The translations under genes and the position numbers were made by a program. The notes under the pieces are model-generated. The model was not told the DNA's origin, did not search any database, and was given only the letters and a program-made list of their open reading frames with translations. This document shows positions 1 to 44,253 of a stretch of DNA of 55,357 nucleotides, piece after piece. This DNA is from Gammaproteobacteria bacterium (GTDB lineage Bacteria > Pseudomonadota > Gammaproteobacteria > Eutrophobiales > Eutrophobiaceae). Numbering within the stretch: the stretch's first letter is position 1; each line of letters begins with the position of its first letter. The stretch is taken from NCBI GenBank assembly GCA_051275005.1, contig JBNMOP010000002.1, forward strand, positions 1-55,357, in the 5' to 3' direction.

Positions 1-1092
1 CATAACGTACAATTCAACATGGAAGGCGCCTTAAATTCGCTGGATGGATCATTAGAACAAACAATCGATACCGGCACAGGACCTGTCATTGTAGCGGTCC
101 CTGGGTCAAACTCGCTGGTGGAAGAACTGCGCGGCGATTTTCTGATTAAAGACACATGGTCACTGGGAAAATTTGAACTGGATTATGGTCTGGGTGTAGA
201 GGTGTCCAATCTTGCGCAGAGTGGTGATGATGAAAAGGAACGCAATTTTACTTTTTTTAAACCACATTCTGTCCTGACATATTCTTCCGGACAAGGTGAA
301 CAGACTAAGGTACGGGTAGCCCGGGAAGTTGCCCAATTGAATTTTGACGATTTTATTAGTACCACAGCCTTTGAAGACAATGAACTGTCATTAGGAAATA
401 TAAACCTGAAGCCTGACACCACATGGATCACCGAGGTGAGCCATGAGCGGCGATTTGGTCGACAGAGCGTTATTAAGCTTACTGGGTTTCACCACTGGAT
501 TTCTGATGTACTTGATTTATTGCCGCTCTCTGCCATGGACGAGGCGCCGGGTAATATAGGGGATGGCAGGCGTTGGGGAGTGGAACTGGAAGCTACAATG
601 CCGTTGGATTGGACCGGATTGATGGGTGCAAAACTGGATATTAATTTGCGTTGGCAGGATTCCACTGTAATTGATCCCGTTACCGGGGAAAATCGTGTCT
701 TGTCAGGTCAAGGTGGGGCCAATGCCTACCGTACCCTTGCTGGTGCAAATAAAAATAACAGATATGGGGCCAGGGTGGATTACCGCCAGGATTTGCAGGT
801 ATCGCGTATTGCCTGGGGTTGGACCGTTGCTGAACGGGATAGGCGGCCGTTGTTTAAAGTGAATGAACTGGATATAAGCAATGAAGGATTTGCCATAGAT
901 GCTTTTATTGAAACGACCCGGTGGCAAGGTTTGAAGGTCAGATTGGCGGGCGATAATTTACTGAATTTTAGTTCTTTGCGATACCGTACTTTTTATACCG
1001 GTCTTCGAGATCTGACGCCGGTAGAATCTCAGGAATTCAGGGATAGACGTAATGGTCGCAGGCTTACCCTAACCATTAGTGGTAGCTTTTAA
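1..1092 (+). CDS. TonB-dependent outer-membrane receptor, C-terminal part (5' end lies outside the window)
   Basis: Frame 1 is open from nt 1; the listed ORF 19..1092 simply starts at the first Met. About 360 aa align with the C-terminal half of the 715-aa receptor at 46775..48922 (REVAQLNF-DF, TEVSHERRFG, TGFHHWI-DVLDLLPL, RWQDSTV-DPVTG). It ends ...SGSF, the terminal Phe typical of OM beta-barrels. Confidence 0.8.
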   Translation, partial: HNVQFNMEGALNSLDGSLEQTIDTGTGPVIVAVPGSNSLVEELRGDFLIKDTWSLGKFELDYGLGVEVSNLAQSGDDEKERNFTFFKPHSVLTYSSGQGEQTKVRVAREVAQLNFDDFISTTAFEDNELSLGNINLKPDTTWITEVSHERRFGRQSVIKLTGFHHWISDVLDLLPLSAMDEAPGNIGDGRRWGVELEATMPLDWTGLMGAKLDINLRWQDSTVIDPVTGENRVLSGQGGANAYRTLAGANKNNRYGARVDYRQDLQVSRIAWGWTVAERDRRPLFKVNELDISNEGFAIDAFIETTRWQGLKVRLAGDNLLNFSSLRYRTFYTGLRDLTPVESQEFRDRRNGRRLTLTISGSF

Positions 1093-1396
1093 TTAGAAGA
1101 AATTCGTACCAGGCATTATCCATAGCTTATTTTAGAAAAAAATTATTGTTCCTGAGAGGTGGGTTTCTTACAATACTCCCATAATGTCGAAATTTGCACT
1201 GTTTGTGAAAGTTCCAGAGCATTGATTGACATATTCACGTATTGGTCACAGACTATGGACATAAAAAGGGGGGGCTAGATAGCCTAGGGAAATCAGTTAC
1301 CCTCATCGTGTATTTAGTGTATTCAGCCATATACAGATGCCCCCTGCTTAAAAACTCATATGCTTTAGATAAACTTGATAAATTGGAGAGAGTGAA

Positions 1397-2155
1397 ATGA
1401 AACATCGTCATTTATTTACATGTTTTAGACTAATCGGTTTAAGTCTGGTTATGGCCCTGGTGGGTAATAATGTAATAGCCCAAACTTACCCTTCAGAAGT
1501 TATGCGTTTCGCTGATTCTGTTTATGTGAATGCCACCATTGTCACCCTGGATGATCACGAAATGAATTCCAATCCAGGGACTATAGTCCAGGCAATGGCT
1601 ATCCGAGATGAGATGATAATGGCCCTGGGATCCACTGATGAGATGATGCGTATGGCTGGACCAGATACTGAAATTATAGACTTGCAGGGTAAGACAGTAC
1701 TGCCAGGAATTGTGGAAAGCCATGTACATCCTATGGGTGCAGCAGAGAGAAATGCCAGGGAGATTTATAACTTACGTAATTCCCCGGAAGGATATGCCCT
1801 GGATATGGATGTTGCTGCGTCCTCTGATGAAACCATGGCGAATGTGGCCGAGGCCATGCAATTATTGTTATCAATTGTTCAACCTGGTCCGGATGAGTGG
1901 ATCAATATCTCCATCGTGCATAATCCTGAACTTGGTTTTGCAACACCAGCGGATGTATCTACCCTGATGAGCGCACCCAGATTAGTTGATGTGCAAATAA
2001 CCAAGGAAGATTTATCGGAAATCGTGCCTAACTATCCATTTGTTTTGTCCAGTGCAACATCAATATTGAGCGCCCCTGAAAAGAACGTTTGGTATCACAT
2101 TACAGTCGGTCCTAATGGACAGCCTGTGGAAGAAAAGGTTATCGATTTACCATAG
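1397..2155 (+). CDS. Exported N-terminal fragment (HxH metal-binding module only) of a YtcJ-like/Amidohydro_3-type hydrolase
   Basis: SD GGAGAG lies upstream. Sec signal ...GNNVIA|QT. It aligns with residues ~1-245 of the full-length 696-aa paralog at 49094..51184 (NA-IVTLDDH-MN-NPGT; LPG-ESH-HP = HxH strand). It stops at TAG 2153-2155, where the paralog continues. Confidence 0.75.
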   Translation: MKHRHLFTCFRLIGLSLVMALVGNNVIAQTYPSEVMRFADSVYVNATIVTLDDHEMNSNPGTIVQAMAIRDEMIMALGSTDEMMRMAGPDTEIIDLQGKTVLPGIVESHVHPMGAAERNAREIYNLRNSPEGYALDMDVAASSDETMANVAEAMQLLLSIVQPGPDEWINISIVHNPELGFATPADVSTLMSAPRLVDVQITKEDLSEIVPNYPFVLSSATSILSAPEKNVWYHITVGPNGQPVEEKVIDLP

Positions 2156-2162
2156 GAGAGTA

Positions 2163-3569
2163 ATGATGAAGACTGCAAATCAATTTAGTGTGAGAGTCTT
2201 TACCTTATTGCTTGGTATTATTTTGCTAAGTACTACTGTCCAGGCCAGTCACAGGGCGCTTCTCTTTAATGAGGCGGCGTTCGACAAGGTCCTTGAGATG
2301 TGGCCGGATTATGTCCAATCTGTTAATAACCAGGCTCGAGGCATGGATAACCCGGGGCAGCGGGGACTCATTACCCAGAGTCCACTGCGTTCCCATTTGG
2401 GTCAATTGTTAAGAGAGCAACCCACCCCTGCCCAGTATGGCGATGGTTTTAAGAAACTGATTAATGAAGTCTATCTAACCGGTGGTATGACGACCTTTGG
2501 TTCCCGGGTCAATACCAATTCCCAGATCAGTGCCTATCATTATATGTTACGTAAAGATGGTCGTCTGCCCATACGACATGCCTATGCCTATGACTTGGCT
2601 AGGCAGGCTATTCCTACGGCTGCGGCCTCTGGTTTGAATGAATACAGCGGGGCAATGTGGGACACCATCGAGGCGAATCCCTGGCTCTGGTTGCATGGTA
2701 TGGCCAGTGAAGGCGATTGGGACGCACCCAATCGCGGTTGTCTACAGGATGATTTGGCAGTTAAACCAGGGGTTGATGAAAGGAAAATAAAAGAGATCAT
2801 AGAAATCTGTCCCGATTTTAATGCCGCCACTGTACAGTCATTGATGCGCGGCATACGTGCCGGCTGGCGCTTTGCTGGCGTGCACGGTGTAGGCAGTCAT
2901 GCCATTCGCTTGTTTGTCCAGAATCTGGAAGGACATATGAAGGCCAATCCCAAAGTTCTGACCCTGGATTATGTTCGCAAATCCCGCCACGGCTTTGCCC
3001 ATGGCACCATGACCGGTGCAGTGCCTGACGTAGTGGAGAGTATGCTCAAGTACAATCTGTACTTACCGATTAACTTGCGTCGTGCCCTGGCAGTCGAACC
3101 TGATAATTGCCGTGGAAATTATGTGGAGGCCTGTTTTAAATTCATAGGTCCTGTGAAGACCCTGCTGGATCAAGGTGTGAAGGTGGTGGGTGAATTTGAA
3201 ATCGGTAACCCAAACCCAGAGACCTACTATGACATTCTAGACGTCTATGTTAATCGCGAATTGGAAAAAGGTGCGGGGACAGAGGCTACTGCACCTGAAA
3301 GGTATGGTGACGGTGAGCTGTTTAATCCTGAAGAAGGTGTGGATCGCGTGGTAGCCCTAAAGTTGTTTACCTACCGCTCGGCAGAATTTCTCTATGCAGA
3401 GTCCAAAATTGGCAGTCTTGAAGTGGGTAAGCTTGCTGACTTCGTGGTCACTGACAAGCCCTATTTATCCGGACCCGACAGAGAAATCCGTGATAACAAG
3501 ACGATATTGACCGTGCTCGCGGGAGAGAGGCGTTACCAGGATCCGGACTATAAACCGGTGGTCCGCTAA
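2163..3569 (+). CDS. Exported C-terminal module of the same amidohydrolase family (no HxH strand), tandem paralog 1 of 4
   Basis: SD AGGAG overlaps the upstream stop, and the start is ATGATG at 2163/2166. The listed ORF start 2115 overlaps the preceding gene and is unlikely to be used. Sec signal ...TTVQA|SHR. It aligns with residues ~270-696 of the full-length paralog (SAYHYMLRKDGRLPIRHAY, GWRFAGVHGVGSHAIR, SRHGFAHGTMTG, EEGVDRVVALKLFTYRSAEF, GSLEVGKLADFVV). Confidence 0.8.
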   Translation: MMKTANQFSVRVFTLLLGIILLSTTVQASHRALLFNEAAFDKVLEMWPDYVQSVNNQARGMDNPGQRGLITQSPLRSHLGQLLREQPTPAQYGDGFKKLINEVYLTGGMTTFGSRVNTNSQISAYHYMLRKDGRLPIRHAYAYDLARQAIPTAAASGLNEYSGAMWDTIEANPWLWLHGMASEGDWDAPNRGCLQDDLAVKPGVDERKIKEIIEICPDFNAATVQSLMRGIRAGWRFAGVHGVGSHAIRLFVQNLEGHMKANPKVLTLDYVRKSRHGFAHGTMTGAVPDVVESMLKYNLYLPINLRRALAVEPDNCRGNYVEACFKFIGPVKTLLDQGVKVVGEFEIGNPNPETYYDILDVYVNRELEKGAGTEATAPERYGDGELFNPEEGVDRVVALKLFTYRSAEFLYAESKIGSLEVGKLADFVVTDKPYLSGPDREIRDNKTILTVLAGERRYQDPDYKPVVR

Positions 3570-3611
3570 GATTATCCGATTGATATAAAAATTTTGAAAC
3601 AGGTGATTAAG

Positions 3612-5015
3612 ATGGTGATAGTGAAACAACTTCGTGGACAATTATGTATGGCCTTACTAGGCGTGCTGGTATTAAGTGTGCCCGCCCAGGCTGCCCACCG
3701 CGTACTTCTTTTTAACGAAAATGCCATGGACAAGGTCCTGGAGATGTGGCCGGACTATGTTGAGTCCGTCAATAATCAGGCACGGGGAATGGAGAATGCC
3801 GGTGCACGCGGTGCGATAAACCAGGCCCCGCTCCGGGCACATCTGGGTCAATTGTTGCGAGAGCAACCGACACCGGCACAATTTGGTGATGGTTTTAAAA
3901 AGCTAATGAAAGACCACTTTCTTCCCGCAGGCCGAACGACTTTTGGTTCCCGCGTCAATACTAATGCCCAGGTCAGCGCTTACCATTACATGTTGCGTGA
4001 GGACGGTCGATTCCCGGTGAGGCATGCCTTTAGTCTAGACCTGGCACGCCAGGCCATTCCCGAGTCCGCGGCCGCCGGATTTTATGAGCACAGAGGGGCT
4101 ATGTGGAATACCATTGAAGCGAATCACTGGCTCTGGCTGCACGGCATGAGTGCCGAGGGAGATTGGGATGCCCCAAATCGCGCTTGTATGGGTGACGACC
4201 TTGCGGTCAAGGCAGGTGTGGAAGTACGACAGGTCAAAGAGATAATTGAGATTTGTCCTGATTTTAATGCACCAACAGTACAAGCCTTAATGAGGGGCGT
4301 ACGTGCCGGCTGGCGCTTTGCCGGGGTTCATGGCAACGGCAGTCATGCCATTCGTCTTTTTGTACAAAAACTGGAAGAACATATGATGGCCAACCCCAAG
4401 GTCATGACCTTGGATTTTGTTAGGGAAGCGCGACATGGCTTTGCCCACGGAACACTGGTGGGCGCGGTGCCGGAAGTGGTTGAGTCTATCCTAAAATATA
4501 ACCTCTACATACCCATCGATGCTGCGCGATCCATGACCATCGAGGCAGATGGTTGCCGTCAAAACTATGTTGAGGCTTGTATAGGTTTTATGGCCCCCAT
4601 AAAGACCTTGCTGGATCAAGGAGTCAAGGTAGTAGGAGAGGCAGAGGTGGTTGAGACCAACCCTGAGACCTACTTCAATCGGCTTGATGTTTATGTTAAC
4701 CGAGAGGTTACACATGTAGGTGGTCACGACTATGGTCCTCCAGATGATCCTAAGGATGGTAGTATTTATAGCCTCGATGAAGGTGTTGATCGGGTGGTTG
4801 CCCTGAAACTTTTTACCCACAGATCATCTGAATTTTTGTATGCAGAAACCAAGGTGGGTAGTCTGGAGGTGGGTAAGATGGCTGATTTCATCGTCAGTGA
4901 TAAGCCCTATCTATCAGGGCCGGATAGAGAAATTCGCGATAACAAGGTAGTTATGACGGTACTTGCCGGAAAGACAGAATACAAAGACCCGGACTATAAG
5001 CCGGTTACTCGTTAA
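3612..5015 (+). CDS. Exported C-terminal amidohydrolase module, tandem paralog 2 of 4
   Basis: ATG 3612 lies 5 nt after SD AGGTGA; the listed TTG 3594 is an alternative start. Sec signal ...VPAQA|AHR. By eye it is roughly 65-75% identical in protein to paralogs 1, 3 and 4 over the full length. Confidence 0.8.
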   Translation: MVIVKQLRGQLCMALLGVLVLSVPAQAAHRVLLFNENAMDKVLEMWPDYVESVNNQARGMENAGARGAINQAPLRAHLGQLLREQPTPAQFGDGFKKLMKDHFLPAGRTTFGSRVNTNAQVSAYHYMLREDGRFPVRHAFSLDLARQAIPESAAAGFYEHRGAMWNTIEANHWLWLHGMSAEGDWDAPNRACMGDDLAVKAGVEVRQVKEIIEICPDFNAPTVQALMRGVRAGWRFAGVHGNGSHAIRLFVQKLEEHMMANPKVMTLDFVREARHGFAHGTLVGAVPEVVESILKYNLYIPIDAARSMTIEADGCRQNYVEACIGFMAPIKTLLDQGVKVVGEAEVVETNPETYFNRLDVYVNREVTHVGGHDYGPPDDPKDGSIYSLDEGVDRVVALKLFTHRSSEFLYAETKVGSLEVGKMADFIVSDKPYLSGPDREIRDNKVVMTVLAGKTEYKDPDYKPVTR

Positions 5016-5128
5016 GTCACTCTGAATCTTCCTGTGGTTACGGTAACGAGCTAGCCTGGGTGCTATAACACAGGCCAGTTGGCTGGATGAGTAATAAGAT
5101 TCCCAGAGAATTAAATAGGAGAATAGTG

Positions 5129-6532
5129 ATGAGGGAACTAAGGCAGTTACATCTGATTATCTGGCTTACGTTTGTTTCGCTATGTTCGGTAAGTGTAACC
5201 GTCAACGCCGCCCACAGGGCCCTCCTATTTAATCAAAATGCCATGGACAGAGTCCTGGAAATGTGGCCTGATTTCGTCGAAGCCACCAACAACCAGGGCA
5301 GAGGTCTGGATACGCCTGGCGAGAGGGCGCTTATATTAACCAGCCCATTACGAGAACATTTCGGTCAACTACTGCGGGAGCAGCCAACCCCCGCGCAGTT
5401 CGGTGATGGCTTCAAGATACTGGTCCGAGACCATTATGCCCCCTCCGGTATTTCAACCTTTGCCACCCGGCTCAATACCGCTGATCAGATCAGTGCCTTT
5501 CATTATATGTTGCGTCAGGATGGTCGCCTGCCGGTACGACTTGGTTATAGTAATGACCTTGCGCGACAGGCCATTTCTTCTATCGCTGCAGCCGGACTGT
5601 ATGAATACAGTGGGGTAATGTGGGACACCATCGAGGCAAACCCCTGGTTATGGTTGCATGGTATGAGCAGTGAGGGGGAATGGGATGCACCCAACCGTGG
5701 TTGCATGGGGGACGACCTGCCTGCAAAGGCCGGGGTAGACGCACGCAAGGTCAAGGAGGTTATTGAAATCTGCCCTTCTTTTGGTGAGCCAGCCGTAGAG
5801 TCCTTGATGCGTGGAGTTCGATCCGGTTGGCGTTTTGCCGGTGTGCATGCCATAGGCAGTCATGCCATCCGTATATTTGTACAAAAGTTGGAAGAGCATA
5901 TGAAGGCAAATCCAAGGATTCTTACTCTGGATTATGTGCGCAAATCACGGCACGGGTTTGCCCACGGCACCTTGACTGGTGCAGTGCCTGATGTGGTTGA
6001 GAGTATGTTGAAATATAATCTTTTTTTGCCAATTAATGTCCGCCGATCATTGGCCATCGAACCTCAGAATATTCAACAGAATTATGGTGAAGCAGGTTGG
6101 AAATTTTTGGCACCAATCAAGACACTAATCGATGCAGGCGCGAATGTAGTCGGAGAAGGCTTGATAGGTGAAGCTACGCCTGAGACCTATTTTGATATTT
6201 TTGATGTTCATGTAAACCGAGAGATTTCCCCTGGCGAAGATGAAAACAGGATGCCCACAGAAAAATATGGCGATGGCATTGTTTATGTCCCTGAAGAAGG
6301 TGTGGATCGAGTAGTTGCTCTTAAACTGTTTACTTACCGTTCTGCAGAATTTTTATTTGCAGAATCAAAAGTAGGGAGTCTGGAGGTAGGTAAATATGCT
6401 GATTTTATTGTGACGGATAAACCTTACCTGTCAGGTTCGGATACGCAAATCCGTGACAACAAGGTGGTCATGACAGTAACTGCCGGTGAAAATACATACC
6501 AGGATTCAGAATATAAACCTGTTGTACGTTAA
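5129..6532 (+). CDS. Exported C-terminal amidohydrolase module, tandem paralog 3 of 4
   Basis: ATG 5129 lies 6 nt after SD AGGAGA; ATG 5087 is an alternative start. Sec signal ...VTVNA|AHR. It carries the same conserved blocks as paralogs 1, 2 and 4. Confidence 0.8.
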   Translation: MRELRQLHLIIWLTFVSLCSVSVTVNAAHRALLFNQNAMDRVLEMWPDFVEATNNQGRGLDTPGERALILTSPLREHFGQLLREQPTPAQFGDGFKILVRDHYAPSGISTFATRLNTADQISAFHYMLRQDGRLPVRLGYSNDLARQAISSIAAAGLYEYSGVMWDTIEANPWLWLHGMSSEGEWDAPNRGCMGDDLPAKAGVDARKVKEVIEICPSFGEPAVESLMRGVRSGWRFAGVHAIGSHAIRIFVQKLEEHMKANPRILTLDYVRKSRHGFAHGTLTGAVPDVVESMLKYNLFLPINVRRSLAIEPQNIQQNYGEAGWKFLAPIKTLIDAGANVVGEGLIGEATPETYFDIFDVHVNREISPGEDENRMPTEKYGDGIVYVPEEGVDRVVALKLFTYRSAEFLFAESKVGSLEVGKYADFIVTDKPYLSGSDTQIRDNKVVMTVTAGENTYQDSEYKPVVR

Positions 6533-6725
6533 TGTGTCGATCTACTATCAGGTAGTTGGGAGTAAACCCTTACACTTTGACTGTTAGCCCTATAGACATT
6601 TATTGCTCTGCTAAATTTTTACATACCGAATCCAGGGCGAGTAGATAAAGCCGGACATTATTTTTATGACACGCAGTTAGAATGTAGATCAAATACATAT
6701 CGAAACTTAATATAGGGACAACGCA

Positions 6726-8084
6726 ATGAAAATATTCAATCGATTCCTCTCACATTTTTGCATAATCTTGATGGCCATGTTTTTGCTAAACGCATCGGTT
6801 CAGGCCGCCCACCGGGCGATGCTGTTTAACCAGAATGCCATGGACAAGGTACTTGAAATGTGGCCGGACCTGGTTGAATCGGTGAATAATCAGGCGCGAG
6901 GAATGGAGAAAGCGGGTGAACGAGGGATCATCACTCAGTCCCCACTGCGAGCCCACCTTGATCAGCTATTGCGCGAGCAACCAACACCGGCACAATTTGG
7001 TGACGGTTTCAAGATGTTGGTGAAAGAGGAATACGCCCCGAAAGGTATGACGACATTTGGATCTCGGCTCAATACCAGTGACCAGATCAGCGCATATCAC
7101 TATATGCTGCGTGAAGAGGGACGTTTGCCCCTTCGTTTTGCCTATAGTTTGGATTTAGCTCGCCAGGCCATACCGGAAGCCGCTGCCAACGGATTTTATG
7201 AGCACCGAGGGGCCATGTGGGACACCATTGAATCTAATCCCTGGCTATGGCTGCATGGCATGAGCGCTGAAGGAGATTGGGATGCCCCTAATAGAGGTTG
7301 CATGGGTGATGACTTGCCGGTCAAACGAGGGGTAGATGCAAAGCAAGTAAAAGAGGTGCTGGAGATATGTCCGGATTTTAATGCCCCTACTGTGAATGCA
7401 TTGATGCGCGGGGTACGTAGTGGCTGGCGTTTTGCGGGGGTACATTCCATAGGTAGTCACGCAATTCGGTTGTTTGTACAGAAACTTGAAGAACACATGA
7501 GGGCAAACCCAAAGGTACTCACCATGGAATTTGTTCGGGAATCCAGACACGGTTTTGCCCACGGTACTATGACCGGTGCCGTCAAAGATGTGGTTGAGGC
7601 AGCGGTTAAATATAATCTTTTTATCCCCATTGCACTGGGAAGATCGCTGGAGATTGAACCGGACAATTGCCGCCAGAATTATGTCGAAGTCTGTATTAAC
7701 TTCCTTGGCCCCATTAAGACCCTATTGGACGCCGGGGTTAATGTCGTCGGTGAAAGTCATGAACCTACTTATTTTGGTGATATGGATATATTCGTAAACA
7801 GGACCCTCCTGCGTGGCGTACATAAAGGGGAGACATTCGTTCCAGAAGAGAGTGTTGACCGTATAGTGGCCCTCAAACTCTTTACCTTTCGCTCTGCGGA
7901 ATTTCTGTACGCGGAGTCCGGTGTCGGTAGTCTGGAAGTGGGTAAGTATGCTGACTTTATCGTTACTGATAAACCCTTCTTGTCAGGACCTGACCGGGAA
8001 ATACATGATAACAAGGTTGTCCTGAATGTATTAGCGGGTAAAACCATCTACCAGGATCCGGAATACAATCCGGTCAGCCCTTAG
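6726..8084 (+). CDS. Exported C-terminal amidohydrolase module, tandem paralog 4 of 4 (shortest; shorter variable loop)
   Basis: Sec signal ...NASVQA|AHR. It carries the same blocks (GWRFAGVHSIGSHAIR, SRHGFAHGTMTG, ESVDRIVALKLFTFRSAEF, GSLEVGKYADFIV). It is separated from paralog 3 by a 193-nt spacer. Confidence 0.8.
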   Translation: MKIFNRFLSHFCIILMAMFLLNASVQAAHRAMLFNQNAMDKVLEMWPDLVESVNNQARGMEKAGERGIITQSPLRAHLDQLLREQPTPAQFGDGFKMLVKEEYAPKGMTTFGSRLNTSDQISAYHYMLREEGRLPLRFAYSLDLARQAIPEAAANGFYEHRGAMWDTIESNPWLWLHGMSAEGDWDAPNRGCMGDDLPVKRGVDAKQVKEVLEICPDFNAPTVNALMRGVRSGWRFAGVHSIGSHAIRLFVQKLEEHMRANPKVLTMEFVRESRHGFAHGTMTGAVKDVVEAAVKYNLFIPIALGRSLEIEPDNCRQNYVEVCINFLGPIKTLLDAGVNVVGESHEPTYFGDMDIFVNRTLLRGVHKGETFVPEESVDRIVALKLFTFRSAEFLYAESGVGSLEVGKYADFIVTDKPFLSGPDREIHDNKVVLNVLAGKTIYQDPEYNPVSP

Positions 8085-8228
8085 TAGTTCCTACATATAA
8101 TTTGGGTATAGCATACTAAATGTTAAAGTGTGTTACGCCGTGATGTTTTCAGCTTCACCACATTAAGTTGCAATCTAAACATCACTAACAAATAGATTAT
8201 GCCCCTGCATACGAATTATTAAGTCGCG

Positions 8229-8819
8229 ATGTATAAATTTAATCCATATAAAATAATTATTTATCTGATTTTATTTCAGCATATTTCTTTTATTGGTTAT
8301 ATACAGGCACAATCAGATTTAGATCCTGTGGTTATTAATTTTGGATCAACTCAAATTACACATCGACAGTTTGATAAACAGTTTGAAACAGCTATGGTTT
8401 TTAATGCATTGGAGAATGGAGTGCCTATTAAAAACCAGGATCAGATCTATGTCCTGGAGCATCGATATCTGCAACAGCGTGCGAAAGAGATGGTGTTACT
8501 GGAGATTGCAAGGCAACAGGGAATTACCGTCTCCATTATGGAACTGGATGGATATATGGATGATTTTATGCAAAAACTGGGATTTAGCGGGTATAGCGTA
8601 AAAAACATGCATAAACTAGGTTTTCAGGAAGAACTATCCTTCCGGGCGATCATGCGAGAAAAGAAAACCATACTCCTAATGATATCCCACATTAAAAATG
8701 ACTTGGAACATAATGATAACGCGAAAACAATAGAGGATAAATTTCTGGAACTAATTAAGCAGAGTGGAATTCAGATATTTCCTGAAAACATTGATATTCC
8801 ATTGACCGATTTAAATTAA
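8229..8819 (+). CDS. Small exported protein, possibly a SurA-N-terminal-like chaperone domain
   Basis: Signal peptide ...GYIQA|QSD. The pattern 'INFGSTQITHRQFDKQFE ... LQQRAKEMVLLEIARQQGITVS--ELD-YMDDF' resembles SurA/PpiD N-terminal domains. The region is AT-rich and the assignment is weak. Confidence 0.4.
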   Translation: MYKFNPYKIIIYLILFQHISFIGYIQAQSDLDPVVINFGSTQITHRQFDKQFETAMVFNALENGVPIKNQDQIYVLEHRYLQQRAKEMVLLEIARQQGITVSIMELDGYMDDFMQKLGFSGYSVKNMHKLGFQEELSFRAIMREKKTILLMISHIKNDLEHNDNAKTIEDKFLELIKQSGIQIFPENIDIPLTDLN

Positions 8820-8949
8820 TCTTACTCACAAGATTGGTGATTATCCTGTATGATTTTATAATTGAATCGTGAAATAAAAGTGTAAGTAGTAGACTCATAA
8901 ATGCGAGAGGAATATCCTCAGTAATATATAATTCTGGTAGGGAGGTTGG

Positions 8950-9246
8950 ATGAAACATAGCAGCTGCGGTTTTCTTATTAAAATCTTTTTTCTTGTAACG
9001 ACATTAATTCTGCCGACAATCACTTGGGGACAAGGTTTGCCTGAAGGTGAACACAGGGACAAGGTAATTATGGTGTGTTCAGCCTGCCATGGTATCGACA
9101 ATATATTTAATGCCTCCCAAAAGATGTCAGCAGATGACTGGGAATTTTATGTCTATGAGATGGTTGCCCGGGGGGCACCGGTAGGCAAGGATGATATGAA
9201 AGATATCATTGAGTACCTGGCTGAAAATTTTACAACTAAAAAATAA
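8950..9246 (+). CDS. Mono-haem c-type cytochrome (exported)
   Basis: SD GGGAGG upstream. A signal peptide is present. A single CxxCH motif (CSACHG). The size, 98 aa, fits a small soluble cytochrome c. Confidence 0.75.
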   Translation: MKHSSCGFLIKIFFLVTTLILPTITWGQGLPEGEHRDKVIMVCSACHGIDNIFNASQKMSADDWEFYVYEMVARGAPVGKDDMKDIIEYLAENFTTKK

Positions 9247-9316
9247 CATGCAATCACAAGATTGCTACGATCAGATTACTATTATTAATAATAGCAAGAT
9301 ATTCAGGGGAATTTAA

Positions 9317-11215
9317 ATGAGAGATTTAGTCAACGACCTTGTTAATGCAAAAATATCCAGACGAAGTTTTTTGGCAGGCATGGCGGCCGCCAGTTACAGC
9401 GTAACTGCGGCAAGATCAGCCCTGGCTGCGGTAGAGCCGTTTATCCCTGGATCAGAATTACCCGGAAATTATGTGCGCACAGTTGAAGGCACCGGCGCAG
9501 AACTCATGGTTGAACAAATTAAAGAGACAGGCACAAAATACCTGTTTTGTTCCAATGGGTCTGGTATGGGCCCGATAGCCGATGCCCTGGTGAAACACCC
9601 TGAGATTCAACTCATTCAGGCAACCCAGGAAGGACAGGTGGTGTCCATAGCTGATGGCTATGCCAAGGTTACAAAAAAACCGGCCTTTGGGATGTATAGC
9701 CGGGTAGGCTTGCCCCATTCAACTTCAAATATGTATAACTCCATGAAGGACCGTACCCCATTGGTCATCATGAGCGATCATTCAAATTCACCTCGTGAAG
9801 GAACAGACAGCCACGAGGATATCGATAACTGGATCGAGGCCATTCGCTTTTATACCAAGTGGCGCTGGGAGGCCCATAAACCAGATCGACTTGCAGAATG
9901 GGTACGTCGTGCTTACAAGGTGGCGAGTGTATTACCATGCGGGCCTACTGCATTACGGATCCCCCGTGACTATATGTATACCAAGACCACAAGTCCGATC
10001 TTTTCTGGTGAGGCATTAAATGTCCCTATGGAAATTCGCCCTGATACCTCAGAGGTAGAACGGGCCGCCAAGATTATATTGAGTGCAAAGTCACCATTGA
10101 TGAAGGTTGGTCCAGAGGTCAGTCAATGTGATGCCCGTGCTTCAGTAGTAGAACTATGCGAACTGGTGGGTATACCGGTGATCCAACATCGAAGTTTTTA
10201 TTGTGATTTTCCAAATACCCATGACCTTTGGTTGGGAGAAAATCAAACTGTCCCTGCCTATGTGCGTGCATACAATCAACCCATCGATCTTTATCTAAAT
10301 TTTGGTGCAAGGCAGGATCCAGGTGGATATGGCAGGCGCGGAACAGCAGTAAGGGAGATCCACGCAAGCGTCGATCAAAATACGATTGGAAGAAACTCAC
10401 CAACCGTGAGTAATCTGGTTGGCAATTTAGATGCAGTGGCAAAGGATTTAATCGATGCCATTAAAGGTATGGCCAGTGCTTCACAATTGAAGCAACTCTC
10501 AGCAGAAAGACGCCGAGTCGCTGGAGGCTTGACACAATCCTTCATAGAAGCACGCCTCGAGGCCGGCAGATTAAGTAAAGGCTCACCTGTACCCTGGCAA
10601 CGATTGGTATATGAGTTACGTCAACAAATGGAGCCCGATGCTGTCATTGTTGAAGAGCAAGGTACTGAATACAAATCCATCGGTAATTTCCCTTTTGCAG
10701 ACGATGCCATGATGAAGATTGGTAGAACAGAGGGACGGGCACTAGGTTGGGGTGTGGGTGCATCGGCTGGCGTAAAACTTGCCTTACCTAATAAACAGGT
10801 AGTTTCCTTACTGGGCGATGGCGGATTCCTTTTCGGTCAAACAGATTCACTGTGGACCATGTCACGTTATGACATCCCGGTCATGTCGGTGGTTTATAAT
10901 AATGGTACATACGAAGAGACCCGTTGGAACATCATGGGCCAAATGGGGGCTGCAGGTAAGGCAAATCGTGACTATGTATCCTATCTGGGTAACCCACGGG
11001 TAGATTTTACCAAGTTGGCCGCTGCATATAATATCCCGGGAGCGGTGGTAAAAAATTCGGACCAATTAAAAGGGGCTATACGAAAAGGTCTACGTACCCT
11101 TGCTGAGGGTCGGCCATTTATGCTGGATGTGCATACACGTACCCTGGGCCTCGGTTCAGAATTGACCGAGTACCAGAAATATTCTCTGGCGGAACAGCGC
11201 ACCAGGAAAGTTTGA
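9317..11215 (+). CDS. Tat-exported thiamine-diphosphate-dependent enzyme (acetolactate synthase / benzoylformate decarboxylase superfamily)
   Basis: Twin-arginine leader SRRSFLAGMAAA...SALA (RR codons 9359-9364). Pyr-domain Glu context ATQEGQVVSIADGYAK. ThDP-binding motif GDG-X25-NN at 10814-10903. The ~630-aa three-domain size fits the family. Confidence 0.85.
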   Translation: MRDLVNDLVNAKISRRSFLAGMAAASYSVTAARSALAAVEPFIPGSELPGNYVRTVEGTGAELMVEQIKETGTKYLFCSNGSGMGPIADALVKHPEIQLIQATQEGQVVSIADGYAKVTKKPAFGMYSRVGLPHSTSNMYNSMKDRTPLVIMSDHSNSPREGTDSHEDIDNWIEAIRFYTKWRWEAHKPDRLAEWVRRAYKVASVLPCGPTALRIPRDYMYTKTTSPIFSGEALNVPMEIRPDTSEVERAAKIILSAKSPLMKVGPEVSQCDARASVVELCELVGIPVIQHRSFYCDFPNTHDLWLGENQTVPAYVRAYNQPIDLYLNFGARQDPGGYGRRGTAVREIHASVDQNTIGRNSPTVSNLVGNLDAVAKDLIDAIKGMASASQLKQLSAERRRVAGGLTQSFIEARLEAGRLSKGSPVPWQRLVYELRQQMEPDAVIVEEQGTEYKSIGNFPFADDAMMKIGRTEGRALGWGVGASAGVKLALPNKQVVSLLGDGGFLFGQTDSLWTMSRYDIPVMSVVYNNGTYEETRWNIMGQMGAAGKANRDYVSYLGNPRVDFTKLAAAYNIPGAVVKNSDQLKGAIRKGLRTLAEGRPFMLDVHTRTLGLGSELTEYQKYSLAEQRTRKV

Positions 11216-11308
11216 TACGTTACAAAATCGAGACGATAATTATTTTTTAGATTATCAATACTGGGTATTTAATTTAATCTTAATATAGTACGAGTGGGGG
11301 AGTAAAAA

Positions 11309-13225
11309 ATGGCAAACCGACGAAATTTTTTGAAAGGTGTAGGTGTTGCTGCGGCATCATCTGTCGCTGCGGGTAAAGTCACAGCACAAACTTCACCAGC
11401 CGCCAATACAGTTTCAGCACTCCCTCCCAGTGCCCATGCAGAAGCCATGGAGCTGTCTATACCCGAGGGCTATAACGAAGACGAGACCAAACATCATTTT
11501 GTCCAGAGCGCCGGATCGGACTTCATGGTGGATGTTATCAAGTCTTTGGATATTGATTATATTTCCTCTAACCCAGGATCCAGCTTTCGCGGATTGCAGG
11601 AATCCATTTCTGTTTACGGTGGAAATAAAAAACCTGAATTTCTGACTTGCCTGCATGAAGAATCCGCTGCCGCTATGGCACATGGCTATGCCAAGATAGC
11701 CCAGAAACCTATGGGTATGGCATGTCATGGAACCGTTGGTCTGCAGCATGCATCCATGGCGATATACAATGCATACTGTGATAAAGCACCCATGGTCATC
11801 TTTGCCGGAAATCACATGGAGGCTACGGGTCGTCGGCCCGGTGCCGAGTGGCACCATTCTGCTCTGGACTGTGTCAAGCTGGTACGGGATTTTATCAAGT
11901 GGGATGATACTCCACTATCACTGACCCATTTTGCCGAATCCACTGTGCGTGCTTACAAGTTAGCGGTAACCCCACCCATGGGGCCAGTGGTAATTCAACT
12001 CGATGGTCATCTGATGGAAGAGGATACCCACGGTGTTGTGCCCGCTATACCAAAATTCACCTATCCACAACCACCCCATGGTGACACGGGTGCATTAAAA
12101 GAGGCGGCCAAGTTACTCATTAACGCAGATAACCCGGTTATTCTTGCTGGCAGTACCGCAAGGACACCTGCAGGGATGGCGTCACTGATTGAGTTGGCTG
12201 AATTGTTGCAGGTACCGGTTTCGGGTGGTGGACGAATGAATTTCCCCAACACTCACTATCTGAATCAAGGGGGTAGAGGACTGATACGTCAGGCAGATGT
12301 GATCCTGGGCCTGGAGCAAAATGGGCTTTGGGATACTGTAAACAGCATGCGCGACCTGGTGCATCGAAGCTCGGTAAGAGTGGCCAAAGATGATGTTAAG
12401 CTCATTAGCCTGGGTTCCAATGATCTGTTTATGAAATCTAATTACCAGACCTTCCAACGCTTTCAACCCGTGGATCTGGATATTACCGGTGATGCCGAGG
12501 CGTCATTACCTTACCTTATTGAAGAAGTAAAAAAACAAATGCCGCGTTCTATGCGTTCTAAATTACAGGAGCGAGAAAAACGATTTCGCAAATCATATGA
12601 ACAAATCATAGAAGGCGTACGACAAGCCGCTGCCCTGGGTTGGAATCAAAGACCTGTCAGCATTGATCGAGTGAGCATGGAACTATGGGATGTGATGAAG
12701 GAACGTGACTGGTCTTATGTTGGCAGGGTCCCTCCTGCTGCCAGGTTATGGGACATGGATAAGCACTATCATCATATTGGTGGCTCAGGTGGTGCGGGTG
12801 TAGGCTACAACCTCCCTGCCTCAATCGGTGCGGCATTGGCAAACAAGGAGCATGGAAGATTTTCAGTTTCTATACAACCCGATGGCGATTCACTCTACGC
12901 CCCAGGGGCATTATGGACTGCCGCCCATCACAAGATACCCATACTTATGGTGATGCATAATAATCGTTCCTATCACCGCGAGGTCATGCATTTACAACGT
13001 ATGGCCACGCGTAGACAGCGTGGTGCCGATGGTGCTGGCGCTAAGATTGGTAACGTGTTCGAAGACCCACATATAAACTTTGCCACACTGGCGCAATCAT
13101 TTGGTGTTTACTCTGAAGGCCCTATCACTAATCCTGATGATCTTGGGCCGGCAATAAAAAGGGCAAGTGAAATAGTCGATCAGGGTATGCCTGCATTAGT
13201 CGACGTCGTTTGTCAGCCTTCTTAA
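11309..13225 (+). CDS. Tat-exported thiamine-diphosphate-dependent enzyme, divergent paralog of the preceding gene
   Basis: Leader NRRNFLKGVGVAAA...VTAQ. Pyr-domain CLHEESAAAMAHGYAK. ThDP motif variant GDS-X22-NN at 12884-12964. SD GGGGGAG upstream. Confidence 0.85.
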   Translation: MANRRNFLKGVGVAAASSVAAGKVTAQTSPAANTVSALPPSAHAEAMELSIPEGYNEDETKHHFVQSAGSDFMVDVIKSLDIDYISSNPGSSFRGLQESISVYGGNKKPEFLTCLHEESAAAMAHGYAKIAQKPMGMACHGTVGLQHASMAIYNAYCDKAPMVIFAGNHMEATGRRPGAEWHHSALDCVKLVRDFIKWDDTPLSLTHFAESTVRAYKLAVTPPMGPVVIQLDGHLMEEDTHGVVPAIPKFTYPQPPHGDTGALKEAAKLLINADNPVILAGSTARTPAGMASLIELAELLQVPVSGGGRMNFPNTHYLNQGGRGLIRQADVILGLEQNGLWDTVNSMRDLVHRSSVRVAKDDVKLISLGSNDLFMKSNYQTFQRFQPVDLDITGDAEASLPYLIEEVKKQMPRSMRSKLQEREKRFRKSYEQIIEGVRQAAALGWNQRPVSIDRVSMELWDVMKERDWSYVGRVPPAARLWDMDKHYHHIGGSGGAGVGYNLPASIGAALANKEHGRFSVSIQPDGDSLYAPGALWTAAHHKIPILMVMHNNRSYHREVMHLQRMATRRQRGADGAGAKIGNVFEDPHINFATLAQSFGVYSEGPITNPDDLGPAIKRASEIVDQGMPALVDVVCQPS

Positions 13226-13920: not shown

Positions 13921-16698
13921 ATGTCTAGATATATTCATCCCAATGTAGTGCTATGTGCAATCATTTCAACACTCATGCTCAGTCCCATGCTGTTATCGGC
14001 ACAGGTTCTGGAAGAAATTGTTGTTACCGCCCAGCGTCGTGTTCAGAGCCTGCAAGAAGTACCTATCTCCATTGAGAGTTTCGCCGGTGCTGAGCTACAG
14101 CAACAGGGATATCGTAATCTCGATGACCTGGCCAATTTTTCTGCAACCGTGCTGGTAAATGACGAAGGCTTTCTTTCAACGGAAAGGACCGTACGCGGAT
14201 TTGGCACCTCGGGTAATGCCCTTACAGTAGAGCAGGCAGTGCCAATCTTTGTAGATGGTATCCATCATGGACGCGCAGGCCAGGTGAAAAATGCCTTTCT
14301 GGACGTAGAACGTCTAGAGGTGTTGAAAGGTCCGCAGCCAGTGTTCTTCGGTATGAGTGCCACTGCGGGTGCATTTAACATTCAAAGTCGCCGTCCCACA
14401 GATACCTGGGAAGGGTATATCGATACGGAATTCGGTAATCGGAAAAAAGGGACGTTGGAAGCCGCGATTGGTGGACCAATATCAGATACCTGGGGCATCC
14501 GCTTTGCTGGGAAATATTCGACCTCGGAAGGTTTTATGAAGTCCGTCATTGATGGTAGACCTGTCGGGGATTATGAAGACCTGGGTGGCAGGGTGATTCT
14601 TGAATGGAAACCCACCGATAACTTTCAAGCTGCATTAAAGCTTGAAGCCACAGCTATCGATAAGTTCCCAGAAGCCAGACATGTCTGTCTGACGGCAGGC
14701 AGTATGATCTTCGGTCGTCAAGATCCTACCCGCGCCGGCGACACTGGTAACGATCGATCGATACATGCGCCGCCACCCAAGGGAGAAGGATTCAACCAAA
14801 ACGTCAGTACTGACAGCAACTGTTTCGGCAGCAATAAGGGTATAAGTGCAGGCGGACCATGGTTTGCAGCGCCGTTTCGTCTTCATGAAGAAAATACAGA
14901 CACCGGTAGCATAGATGTTCGAAATACTCTCGATGCCTGGAACAAACAATTATGGGAACAAACTGACGGCAAGGCAGGCAGTCCCTACGGGATCCAGGGT
15001 ATCGAAGAGATTGGTAACCAAGAAGGATATTTGGATCTGGGGTATACCATGGACAATGGTATTCAGGTCAATTCACTCTCTGGATACAGTTATTTCAAGA
15101 GGCTGAATGTGCGCGACAACAGTGATTCACCATTTTATCATAACCAGCAAGACCGTGTGGAGATTTTTGATCAGATCAGTTCTGAATTACGATTTACCTC
15201 ACCGAGCGGGGGTACAATTGAATGGATGGGTGGTTTCTTCTGGCAGAAGACCGGTTATAACATCACCGCCAACCATGCGACTGCAGTTGTTCGTCGAGGT
15301 CTGCGATACAATGATCACATACGGGAAGATCAGGAATGGAAGTCAGCATTTGCCTCTGTGACCTTTAACTTCCTGGACGACCGCGCTTCCATAGATTTGG
15401 GTGGTCGTTATGTCGATCTGAATAAGAGTGGTGCTGTGTCTGGTGTGGCCGGGCAGTTTTTATTTGATTCAATGCCTTGCGCAGGTGATAGAGCTCTGGA
15501 TCATTTAGGCCTGGGTAATGCCGATCCTGCGACTTGTACACCAGATCCAAACGGACTTCAGATTGCCGCAGCCGATGCAGCTATCGTGCTGCCGGGTGCC
15601 GATACCTCAAATCTCTGGATGCTGGATTATAATTCCAACACGGGACGCATAGTACCAACCAACTGGCGCAGCCCAACAACGTCAGCAGTGGGGATCTTTA
15701 TCTATCCGAACCGGGCAGTGAATACCCTTAACGGCCCGAGAAGAGGTCGCGGACTTCGACGAGCCCCCTTCGTTGATGGCCGAGTGGAAGACGGAGTAGA
15801 ATGCTGTGATTTTGGATCAAAGGAGTTCGACCCTCAGGTTACCCTGCGATATAGGTTCAATGACGAACACTCGGTATTTGCCCGTTGGGCCCAGGCCTTT
15901 AAGGCAGGTGGCTTTGACACCGGCGTCACCACCATCAACTCAAGTGTTGATGATTTTCGTTTTGATGCGGAAAATGCCCAGACCTTTGAGTTTGGTTCCA
16001 AGGGTAATCTCTTTGATGGTAGTGCCCGGTATGACCTCACGTTCTTCAGAACAGATTTTAATGACTTCCAGATCACGGTTCCCACAGGCATCGAAGGTGA
16101 TCCCTTCCTCAACGCCAATGCTGGTAAGCAGCGGGTGCAGGGCATAGAGTTCGGTTACACACATGCCTTGTCAGACCGTTTGACCATGGGACTGGCGGGC
16201 GCCTGGATGGACGGGGTGATGAAGATCTTCCCGGCAGGTGGATGTACCGACGAGGAAACAAGAACGGCACCGGCATCGGGTTGTGTCCTGAATACTCCAG
16301 GAGACCCAGATAGTGGCGGTAGCATTGACCGTTCCGGTGAGGAATCACCGAAGACGCCTGATTACAAGTTGGTCCTCAGTCTGGATTACTGGATGCCTAT
16401 TGGTAGTTTAAAGGGCATGTGGAATTTCAAAGGATACGTCTCTGATGGTTACTTAACCGATGTGAACGGTTTCAGTAAGGAAGTTAAGTTTAACAAGCAT
16501 GAAGATATTAACACTTCTCTGAGTATCGGTGACATGGAAGATAAATGGACGATTTCACTCTGGGGTCGTAACTTGTTAGAGGCCAGACCATCTTACAATG
16601 CGGAATTCGATACTCTACCTGATGGCTTTCTGGGTGCTTCCGTGTCTCCCAATAACTACATGTCTTATGGTGTGAAGTTCCGTTATAATTACCAGTAA
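13921..16698 (+). CDS. TonB-dependent outer-membrane receptor (large type, 925 aa)
   Basis: A signal peptide is present. The plug signature is LEEIVVTAQRRVQSLQEVPISI...VRGFGTSGN...VERLEVLKGPQ. A long beta-barrel region follows. It is a paralog of 41418..44204. Confidence 0.9.
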   Translation: MSRYIHPNVVLCAIISTLMLSPMLLSAQVLEEIVVTAQRRVQSLQEVPISIESFAGAELQQQGYRNLDDLANFSATVLVNDEGFLSTERTVRGFGTSGNALTVEQAVPIFVDGIHHGRAGQVKNAFLDVERLEVLKGPQPVFFGMSATAGAFNIQSRRPTDTWEGYIDTEFGNRKKGTLEAAIGGPISDTWGIRFAGKYSTSEGFMKSVIDGRPVGDYEDLGGRVILEWKPTDNFQAALKLEATAIDKFPEARHVCLTAGSMIFGRQDPTRAGDTGNDRSIHAPPPKGEGFNQNVSTDSNCFGSNKGISAGGPWFAAPFRLHEENTDTGSIDVRNTLDAWNKQLWEQTDGKAGSPYGIQGIEEIGNQEGYLDLGYTMDNGIQVNSLSGYSYFKRLNVRDNSDSPFYHNQQDRVEIFDQISSELRFTSPSGGTIEWMGGFFWQKTGYNITANHATAVVRRGLRYNDHIREDQEWKSAFASVTFNFLDDRASIDLGGRYVDLNKSGAVSGVAGQFLFDSMPCAGDRALDHLGLGNADPATCTPDPNGLQIAAADAAIVLPGADTSNLWMLDYNSNTGRIVPTNWRSPTTSAVGIFIYPNRAVNTLNGPRRGRGLRRAPFVDGRVEDGVECCDFGSKEFDPQVTLRYRFNDEHSVFARWAQAFKAGGFDTGVTTINSSVDDFRFDAENAQTFEFGSKGNLFDGSARYDLTFFRTDFNDFQITVPTGIEGDPFLNANAGKQRVQGIEFGYTHALSDRLTMGLAGAWMDGVMKIFPAGGCTDEETRTAPASGCVLNTPGDPDSGGSIDRSGEESPKTPDYKLVLSLDYWMPIGSLKGMWNFKGYVSDGYLTDVNGFSKEVKFNKHEDINTSLSIGDMEDKWTISLWGRNLLEARPSYNAEFDTLPDGFLGASVSPNNYMSYGVKFRYNYQ

Positions 16699-16717
16699 GA
16701 AACACATTTGTAATGTG

Positions 16718-16748
16718 AAAAAACCGGGGCCAGTCCCCGGTTTTTTTT
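16718..16748 (+). terminator. Rho-independent terminator
   Basis: Stem CCGGGG (16724-16729), loop CCAGT, stem CCCCGG (16735-16740), then T8 (16741-16748). It begins 20 nt after the receptor stop codon. Confidence 0.8.
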
Positions 16749-17003
16749 GCCTGATAAAAACCAGGTGACAAGTATCTTAAGGTCCAAAACTTAATAATGT
16801 AGTGATTGGGATAGTAATCATTGACGTCACTTTCATTCCGATGCTAAGTTGATATCGGCCTCTCCGTAAATTCGAGCGCTATGAATGTGTTGTGGAATGT
16901 GACGGGCAAAAAGTTCTTACCATCTCAAAACAATACTTAGTCCTCAATTTATGGGTGGCAGGGTGTATTTTATAATATTAATAAACATGGCCTTTGTATC
17001 AGG

Positions 17004-18479: not shown

Positions 18480-18551
18480 TATCTCAGCTTACGGTTATAC
18501 TATTTTATAAAGTAATACCATATCTACACAGATTCTCCGGGGGAAACAGTC

Positions 18552-20447: not shown

Positions 20448-20488
20448 TTTTGGGATTGCATCATCAAAAATATCCTCGGGGGCGGTGG

Positions 20489-22921: not shown

Positions 22922-23005
22922 TTTGGCATTGTTTGTAGTTATACATTGAATTTTAAAGATAAATGTTCAAGAATTAATAGATACGTAATTGGAGGTTAGA
23001 GCGCC

Positions 23006-24355: not shown

Positions 24356-24382
24356 TTAACAGCTATTCAATAATTAATAGAT

Positions 24383-31038: not shown

Positions 31039-31077
31039 TTTCTCCTCATTTATACCTGTGTAATAACAATCAATAAA

Positions 31078-34880: not shown

Positions 34881-34892
34881 ATTGATAAACAC

Positions 34893-37996: not shown

Positions 37997-37998
37997 CC

Positions 37999-39336: not shown

Positions 39337-39374
39337 TTGGTTTAAACTTCTGGTTAAAGTTTACTGGAGAGCAT

Positions 39375-44204: not shown

Positions 44205-44223
44205 TAGTCAGTAAACTTTATTG

Positions 44224-44253
44224 AAAAAGGGGAACACAGTTCCCCTTTTTTTT
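44224..44253 (+). terminator. Rho-independent terminator
   Basis: Stem GGGGAA (44229-44234), loop CACAG, stem TTCCCC (44240-44245), then T8 (44246-44253). It begins 20 nt after the receptor stop codon. Confidence 0.8.

Follow-up and report, generated by a model that had tools for sequence, protein, structure and literature searches.

How one fold and one metal site can diversify is classically illustrated by the amidohydrolase superfamily, whose YtcJ-like members include single-chain enzymes such as the proteins of the solved structures 3ICJ and 3IGH and the characterised enzyme BwBSH1. Elsewhere, one enzyme can occur either as a single chain or as the products of adjacent genes for a large and a small subunit, as exemplified by aconitase on the one hand and LeuC/LeuD and HacA/HacB on the other. 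Urease, which is itself a member of the superfamily, has subunit genes that are found fused or split, and its alpha subunit keeps all metal ligands and the whole barrel. Here we describe a locus at positions 1397-8084 of a 55,357-nucleotide stretch of DNA from a gammaproteobacterium of the family Eutrophobiaceae (contig JBNMOP010000002.1 of assembly GCA_051275005.1; this entire stretch is referred to as the window). It comprises one gene for a short protein, N, followed by four tandem genes for longer proteins, C1 to C4. These five genes probably encode a naturally split, two-subunit metal-dependent amidohydrolase that acts as an obligate heteromer and in which the C gene has been expanded to a 1N:4C arrangement.

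The coordinates of N, C1 to C4 and two full-length paralogues, as given in an earlier note on this DNA, all hold upon an open reading frame check (Table 1). When the 696-residue single-chain paralogue was used as a reference in BLASTP, residues 24-214 of N aligned to its residues 21-205 with 41% identity (E 5e-43), and the aligned stretch contained the sequence LPGIVESHVHP with the HxH motif. N matches the reference only over its first 205-245 residues or so. Residues 26-461 of C1 aligned to reference residues 267-688 with 38% identity (E 1e-91), and the four C proteins, which are 452-468 residues long, are 64-71% identical among themselves. N carries a signal peptide of the general secretory (Sec) type that ends in NNVIA, directly followed by QTYPSE. 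Likewise, the signal peptides of C1 to C4 each end in AxA immediately before the sequence (S/A)HRxxLFN, which aligns with an internal GSHAFIVFN of the single-chain reference. Mature N (224 residues) and mature C (440 residues) add up to 664 residues, as compared to about 671 for the mature single-chain protein. The claims of the earlier note that N corresponds only to the front of the single-chain protein including HxH, that the four C modules correspond only to residues from about 267 to 696 and have Sec signal peptides of their own, that fragment and module together reach about full length, and that the C modules lack the HxH of strand 1 are thus all borne out.

N and C1 are separated by 7 nucleotides and lie in different reading frames, a junction whose geometry is that of translational coupling as far as can be judged from its sequence. 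The subsequent gaps measure 42 (C1-C2), 113 (C2-C3) and 193 nucleotides (C3-C4). Over positions 1000-9400, shuffled sequence gave at least as many promoter and terminator predictions as the real one, and the intergenic gaps contained no predicted terminator, which leaves the operon structure neither shown nor contradicted. The observation of one N and four C modules is itself confirmed, the E-values and the conservation described below putting chance far out.

The profile of the PF07969 (Amidohydro_3) family, with a cut-off of 29.7 bits, was matched by C1 to C4 with 49.5-66.6 bits and by the full-length protein with 121 bits. The C modules cover roughly profile positions 124/270-472, and N on its own covers only positions 1-26 with 24.8 bits, which is below the cut-off. 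No curated NCBIfam model was matched at its cut-off by N, C or the single-chain protein. In Foldseek searches, the folds closest to the AlphaFold model of the single-chain paralogue (mean predicted local distance difference test score (pLDDT) 88.8, predicted template modelling score 0.87) were 3ICJ and 3IGH, which are YtcJ-like hydrolases (E 4e-20), and the same two structures were the best matches of the C1 model (E 2e-10). Profiles of N and C match complementary parts of one solved chain, namely residues 51-104 of 3ICJ including its HxH for N, and residues 345-364 and 451-502 for C. All matches in the Protein Data Bank (PDB) are single chains, apart from the 81-residue 3GGM. N and C1 to C4 can be assigned on these matches to the YtcJ-like (PF07969) branch of the amidohydrolase superfamily.

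Closer examination of the single-chain model revealed that its sole disordered internal segment, residues 241-269, is the point at which the genes are split: N ends at about single-chain residue 245, and mature C starts at residue 269. In the model, this linker is preceded by strands of the sandwich and by strand 1 of the barrel, which ends in the HxH (residues 105-107), and barrel strands 2-8 and the C-terminal sandwich strands come after it. According to the models, the (beta/alpha)8 barrel and the composite beta-sandwich of the split form would be complete only with N and C together. The linker is also the least conserved stretch in 23 single-chain homologues (mean frequency of the top residue 0.33-0.37, 23% gaps, length 10-58 residues), and it ends in these proteins at (G/S)SH(A/R)xxxxN, the motif that opens every C module. 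A break within a disordered and hypervariable linker supports the view that a gene was split and that its products reassemble.

The same division is apparent from the metal ligands. ESHVHP, which includes the HxH, was invariant in 18 of 18 N homologues, as was much of the 35-residue C-terminal tail of N, and the HxH is missing from every C module. Conversely, H241 on strand 5, H280 on strand 6, E344 and E183 (C1 numbering) were invariant in 19 split C sequences; upon addition of the single-chain relatives, the two histidines remained invariant and the two glutamates nearly so. E344 belongs to the sequence VVGE, which is placed at strand 8, E183 closely follows strand 4, and all four residues are kept in each of the four C paralogues of four genomes. 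In BwBSH1, a characterised Amidohydro_3 enzyme, the replacements H110A and H112A in the HxH abolish activity, and alanine in place of the strand-4 lysine, either of the other two histidines or the strand-8 aspartate kills activity as well (bioRxiv 10.64898/2026.04.05.716592). By the mechanism of the superfamily, C alone would be without two ligands of the buried metal, since the HxH is carried by N only, and N alone would be without everything else. The metal ligands thus appear to be divided between two polypeptides.

A collection of 5.8 billion proteins was searched, and relatives were mapped on species-representative genomes and metagenome assemblies. C1 retrieved 235 relatives, the best 120 of which were all 365-472 residues long, and N retrieved 226, the best 120 of which were all 212-284 residues long; by these lengths, N and C constitute two widespread stand-alone families. 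The relatives are mostly from metagenome-assembled genomes (MAGs) of marine Gammaproteobacteria, for example Woeseiaceae and Candidatus Eutrophobius. N was found directly upstream of the first C and on the same strand in 13 of 13 genome loci (14 arrays) for which upstream DNA was available, with N-to-C gaps of -4, -1 or +7 to +11 nucleotides. A metagenome scan seeded with N yielded 47 N loci, and C lay directly downstream in 43 of the 43 with room for it, without exception. Overall, the gap ranged from -4 to +12 nucleotides. The ratio of nonsynonymous to synonymous substitution rates (dN/dS) between the two related genomes L007 and L009 was 0.047 for N and 0.016-0.034 for C1 to C4 (0.016-0.028 for C2 to C4), which is indicative of strong purifying selection on all five genes.

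The split, which the earlier note had proposed to look for in other genomes, thus recurs at all 13 genome loci and all 43 metagenome loci that could be assessed. Gene fission, as suggested in that note, is strongly supported by this conservation of the divided form in more than 55 loci, but it is not an event of this genome. Judged from its distribution, the split is old and widespread, with 1N:1C as its basic form, and N plus C is very probably a working two-piece enzyme. A third clade of split proteins (P0260) has an N gene of 290 residues, with a Sec signal and the motif HAH, upstream of C. In a neighbour-joining distance tree, which carries no support values, the split clades fall among single-chain forms, and repeated fission or fusion at the linker is hinted at.

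An exhaustive search of representatives with the single-chain protein uncovered a further clade of split proteins, apparently from halophiles: its members have an acidic composition, with a ratio of D+E to K+R of 1.5-2.5, and domains of the Haloferax type are encoded nearby. The N+C split is thus present in many marine bacteria and in what appear to be salt-loving archaea. In this clade, 18 of 18 C clusters have no signal peptide; their sequences open with M-[SGTA]-H-[RAK], so that the split falls exactly where it does in the window, and all 6 complete N genes specify a twin-arginine motif (S/T-R-R-x-F/L), to which two of them add a lipobox. Examples of these N signals are STDRRTLLG...AGCG (with lipobox), TRRSFVQGAG and STSRRTFMKG. 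In the loci that were read, the C start lies between 1-4 nucleotides before and 6 nucleotides after the N stop. The halophile loci L070, L071, L072, L077 and L078, in which C opens with M-S/G-H-R, stem from Logan assemblies; L072 contains two N+C pairs in tandem beside nosD/nosL-like genes, with the lipobox AGCG in both copies of N.

The twin-arginine translocation (Tat) system moves folded proteins, and partners without a signal can ride with a signal-bearing subunit. A Tat signal on N only, combined with a C that has no signal, would be the pattern expected of a folded N·C complex that is exported as a unit. The proteins of the window differ from this clade in that both N and C carry Sec signals. 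Such an alternation between Sec signals on both chains and a Tat signal on N only is predicted if N and C form a heteromer, and would be unexplained if they were independent proteins.

Most loci contain one N and one C. The 1N:4C array was found in the window and in three more genomes (L006, L007 and L009). Among these four, C orthologues at the same position are 75-82% identical, as compared to 60-72% between paralogues. The C expansion thus predates these species, because identity at the same position exceeds that between paralogues; it is a lineage-specific expansion in which every copy and the gene order have been kept. Conservation across the four C orthologue groups is highest at the mature N-terminus and in the C-terminal half of the sandwich (12 of 20 residues invariant), and the fixed differences that are specific for each group are concentrated behind strands 2, 7 and 8, where the barrel faces the active site. 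This distribution would suit a shared N with four variants of the pocket. On balance, one N is somewhat more likely than otherwise to be common to all four C subunits. The array would then probably give rise to four isoenzymes, N·C1 to N·C4, and could provide combinatorial specificity.

Other expansions have taken different forms. L014 shows an independent triplication of C only, with identities of 77-79%, and whole N+C pairs have been duplicated in L013 and L072. In L014 (the same as L035), N-C-C-C is followed, at L014:7751-10403, by a 695-residue single-chain paralogue and a 135-residue remnant, and then by the SurA-like gene. The remnant corresponds to no more than the final third of a C module and is 71% identical to C1, and it looks as if a fourth C had been disrupted or replaced by insertion of the single-chain gene.

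We propose the following model. N, with a mature mass of about 24 kDa, would contribute one half of the composite beta-sandwich, namely the first, together with an insertion domain and the HxH-bearing strand 1. C, with a mature mass of about 49 kDa, would complete the sandwich and contribute strands 2-8, the histidines of strands 5 and 6 and the two invariant glutamates, one at strand 8 and one close to strand 4. The two kinds of chain would leave the cytoplasm of this bacterium separately, unfolded and via Sec, each by its own signal peptide, and the active site would form only upon co-folding of N and C in the periplasm. The ancestral unit may have been a single N gene with a single C gene in translational coupling, and later duplications in this lineage would have left four long-lived C paralogues downstream of the one N. 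The resulting isoenzymes would have the HxH subunit in common but different substrate pockets, and their substrates would probably be amide or related bonds in small organic compounds that are imported by the adjacent TonB-dependent receptor. We infer the physical heteromer, the sharing of N, catalysis and the substrate from sequence. Nevertheless, an obligate N·C heteromer is regarded as highly probable. A more general statement has about an even chance of being correct, namely that there is an exported family in which one triosephosphate isomerase (TIM)-barrel active site is built from two polypeptides, whose linker underwent repeated breakage or rejoining in both Bacteria and Archaea, whose signals follow the export route, and in which, in some gammaproteobacteria, a single HxH subunit is common to three or four alternative barrel subunits and yields a small combinatorial set of periplasmic isoenzymes, with assembly taking place after export and possibly being aided by the SurA-like chaperone of the next gene downstream.

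Other explanations need to be considered. A decaying pseudogene, a false TAG at the end of N introduced in sequencing or assembly, or a fusion of N and C1 by programmed frameshifting or readthrough can be set aside with near certainty. It is true that a frameshift error would produce two neighbouring frames like those of N and C1, with 7 nucleotides between them. Yet more than 55 independent assemblies contain the stop and the split, their junctions varying in frame and from -4 to +11 nucleotides, dN/dS is far below 1, and both families are stand-alone in the 5.8-billion-protein collection. In addition, the C signal peptide is conserved and cleavable, which is sensible only at an N-terminus. 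Pseudogene, sequencing error and programmed recoding were rejected on conservation, dN/dS and the varying junctions and frames, and in particular because junction geometry and frame vary while the signal peptide of C is conserved. A decaying remnant without counterparts in related genomes, which the earlier note had thought would refute its proposal, is contradicted by the more than 55 loci and by dN/dS values of 0.016-0.047.

Several observations do weigh against the proposed heteromer. C1 modelled alone by AlphaFold gives a confident partial barrel (pLDDT 91.1) that shows no dependence on N; the strand-4 carboxylated lysine (KCX373 in BwBSH1) is not conserved, position 178 being H, R or L; and the predicted strand-8 position has the glutamate of VVGE in place of the canonical aspartate. 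Furthermore, the sharing of one N by four C is supported by gene order and sequence only, and a MAG with a 4C array also holds two separate N+C pairs (L006 and L013 are on one contig). The metal site may be non-canonical, because the strand-4 lysine is not conserved and the predicted strand-8 residue is Glu and not Asp; E183 is a candidate replacement for the lysine. Together with the presence of four C genes per single N, the confident model of C1 and the lack of conservation of the canonical residues of strands 4 and 8, which hints at altered chemistry, would suit C modules that are self-sufficient, as non-canonical enzymes or binding proteins, with N being an independent protein that merely belongs to the same operon. 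The C1-alone model does not discriminate between this possibility and an obligate heteromer. However, N adjoins C in 100% of more than 55 loci and in translational-coupling geometry, the HxH is invariant in N and the other ligands in C, strand 1 and half of the sandwich are absent from C, the HxH is essential in the characterised relative BwBSH1, and in the halophile pairs only N bears an export signal, of the Tat type. Self-sufficient C modules, the second of the two possibilities raised in the earlier note, are consequently disfavoured by adjacency, ligand division, the missing strand 1 and the halophile signals, and we regard them as improbable. N may also pair only with the coupled C1, with C2 to C4 using an N encoded elsewhere or having lost catalysis. 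This would fit the basal 1N:1C arrangement seen everywhere, the gap of 7 nucleotides between N and C1 as compared to 42, 113 and 193 for the later ones, and the further N+C pairs elsewhere in the related MAG (L013). It is nonetheless unlikely, though a shade less so than self-sufficiency: C2 to C4 keep all invariant catalytic residues at dN/dS values of 0.016-0.028, four genomes have kept the C genes in the same order, every additional N gene that was observed comes with a C of its own, and the regions expected to touch N are the most conserved among the C paralogues. A split enzyme that reassembles after export, the first possibility of the earlier note, has gained strong comparative support, because N and C are always adjacent, are under purifying selection, divide the conserved ligands, are split at the linker and, in halophiles, have Tat on N only.

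Table 1. Positions of the genes discussed, in nucleotides of the window.
Feature	Position	Strand	Remarks
TonB-dependent-receptor-like outer-membrane gene, 3' part	19-1092	+	Cut by the start of the window; Pfam PF00593; paralogue of 46775-48922
N subunit gene, 252 residues	1397-2155	+	Sec signal peptide, codons 1-28 (1397-1480); HxH = H109-V-H111, nucleotides 1721-1729
N subunit, layout			N-terminal half of beta-sandwich, barrel strand 1 with HxH, insertion domain, conserved tail YPFVLSSATSILSAPEKNVWYHITVGP
N/C1 junction	2154-2165	+	Stop TAG 2153-2155 overlapping the Shine-Dalgarno sequence AGGAGAG; ATG at 2163
C1 subunit gene, 468 residues	2163-3569	+	Sec signal peptide of 28 residues; mature N-terminus SHRALLFN
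C1 subunit, content			Barrel strands 2-8 with E183, H241, H280 and E344, and C-terminal half of beta-sandwich
C2 subunit gene	3612-5015	+	70% identity to C1; own signal peptide; mature N-terminus AHRVLLFN
C3 subunit gene	5129-6532	+	68% identity to C1; own signal peptide; mature N-terminus AHRALLFN
C4 subunit gene	6726-8084	+	70% identity to C1; own signal peptide; mature N-terminus AHRAMLFN
SurA_N-like periplasmic chaperone gene, 196 residues	8229-8819	+	Shortened relative to the 323-residue SurA_N + parvulin peptidyl-prolyl isomerase found elsewhere
Small c-type cytochrome gene, SorB-like	8950-9246	+	Conserved neighbour, same gene cluster
Thiamine pyrophosphate (TPP)-dependent enzyme gene	9317-11215	+	Tat signal SRRSFLAG; conserved neighbour, same gene cluster
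Single-chain amidohydrolase paralogue, 696 residues	49094-51184	+	Reference; residues 241-269 form a disordered linker matching the split point
Second single-chain amidohydrolase paralogue	53458-55357	+	Cut by the end of the window; 83% identity to the 49094-51184 protein

The genes around the split enzyme are conserved as well. As in the window, N has a TonB-dependent-receptor-like gene ahead of it in the other 4C loci, and a paralogue of this gene stands before the single-chain gene. The receptor genes at 46775-48922 and 19-1092 are short (707-715 residues) and match the Plug domain with 20.9 bits as compared to a cut-off of 23.9; by their sequences they represent atypical TonB-dependent receptors. 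A SurA-like gene lies directly after the last C in 29 of the 40 loci with room for it and in other lineages has the full form of SurA_N plus parvulin with 323 residues (for example L012:4905-5876), which in the 4C lineage is shortened to SurA_N only. It is tempting to speculate that this protein is a dedicated assembly factor for the split enzyme. In many loci, the split amidohydrolase is followed by the SorB-like cytochrome c and the Tat-exported TPP enzyme. The window has two such TPP enzymes, at 9317-11215 and 11309-13225 (twin-arginine motif NRRNFLKG in the latter), which belong to the pyruvate-oxidase/acetolactate-synthase family, and a periplasmic TPP enzyme coupled to a cytochrome c would be unusual. 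No NCBIfam model was matched at its cut-off by the TPP enzymes and the cytochrome of 8950-13225, and no Rfam hit was obtained in the window or in the 300-nucleotide leader upstream of N, so that no riboswitch gives a clue to the substrate. By this gene order, the split enzyme is seen as part of a conserved periplasmic catabolic module.

The window as a whole is rich in periplasmic catabolic enzymes. Three paralogous triads with identities of 53-64% are located at 20450-26029 (+), 29368-34892 (-) and 35540-41045 (+). Each encodes a protein of about 820 residues with the domains DUF1592, DUF1588, DUF1587, DUF1585 and DUF1595, a DUF1552 protein of about 445 residues with the sequence HXXSHH and a Tat-like RR motif, and a secreted ankyrin-repeat protein of about 550 residues; these are Planctomycete-type domains in a gammaproteobacterial context. 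A duplicated module at 13921-20336 and 41418-46644 encodes TonB-dependent receptors of 925 and 928 residues (45% identity) and dehydrogenases dependent on pyrroloquinoline quinone (52%). In addition, an Amidohydro_1 protein is encoded in the first copy (17004-18479), and a cytochrome c in the second (46255-46644). Two open reading frames had no Pfam match at an E-value of 0.01 or better, namely 27222-28610 (-), of 462 residues, and 51475-53193 (-), of 572 residues, the latter being situated between the two single-chain amidohydrolase paralogues.

If the proposed heteromer is real, then a barrel can receive its strand 1, and a sandwich one of its halves, from a second polypeptide in trans, even when the two chains have been exported separately via Sec. 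Proteins currently annotated as 'hypothetical' (N) and 'fragment' (C) would be genuine subunits, and it should be noted that large surveys of the family filter such fragments out. The two patterns of export signals, Sec on both chains or Tat on one and none on the other, would amount to a natural experiment on how the export route shapes subunit architecture. The 1N:4C arrays suggest that specificity can be diversified cheaply by duplicating the pocket-bearing subunit only, and the split site might be usable as a design for split-enzyme engineering of the amidohydrolase fold. Lastly, the operon points to an uncharacterised periplasmic pathway, with TonB receptor, hydrolase, TPP enzyme and cytochrome c, in abundant marine sediment bacteria.

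A full-text search of the literature gave no description of a split amidohydrolase architecture, in agreement with the earlier note, which knew of no described example, and we found no superfamily member in which the metal ligands come from more than one polypeptide. The best match of the N profile in the PDB is 3GGM (BT9727_2919 from Bacillus; E 1.3e-7), a chain of 81 residues with the N-terminal sandwich strands and the HxH. It may be a fragment or another stand-alone N fragment; no literature was found on it. The AibH1H2 heterodimer is likewise a heteromer of proteins with the amidohydrolase fold, but each of its subunits is a complete fold (PMC12141560).

With the YtcJ-like single-chain enzymes (3ICJ, 3IGH, BwBSH1 and the 696-residue paralogues), the split proteins have in common the fold, the HxH, the histidines of strands 5 and 6 and the composite sandwich, and they would be expected to act by the same mechanism as a YtcJ-like metallohydrolase. 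They differ in that fold and metal site are distributed over two chains, cut in the linker between strand 1 with the insertion domain and strand 2, in that there is no conserved strand-4 lysine and the predicted strand-8 residue is Glu and not Asp, and in that the enzyme is predicted to be exported. In urease the extra subunits are accessory domains, whereas here the active site itself would be split. The halophile relatives resemble the Tat hitchhikers, such as the small and large subunits of hydrogenase and DmsAB, in which one partner has the twin-arginine signal, while the proteins of the window have Sec signals on both. The likeness to aconitase and LeuCD is that of a single-chain enzyme with homologues in the form of large and small subunits that must associate to form one site. 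Those enzymes have a different fold and chemistry and are cytoplasmic, whereas here the two pieces of one barrel are predicted to be exported, separately via Sec or jointly via Tat, and the large subunit is represented by up to four paralogues behind one small subunit.

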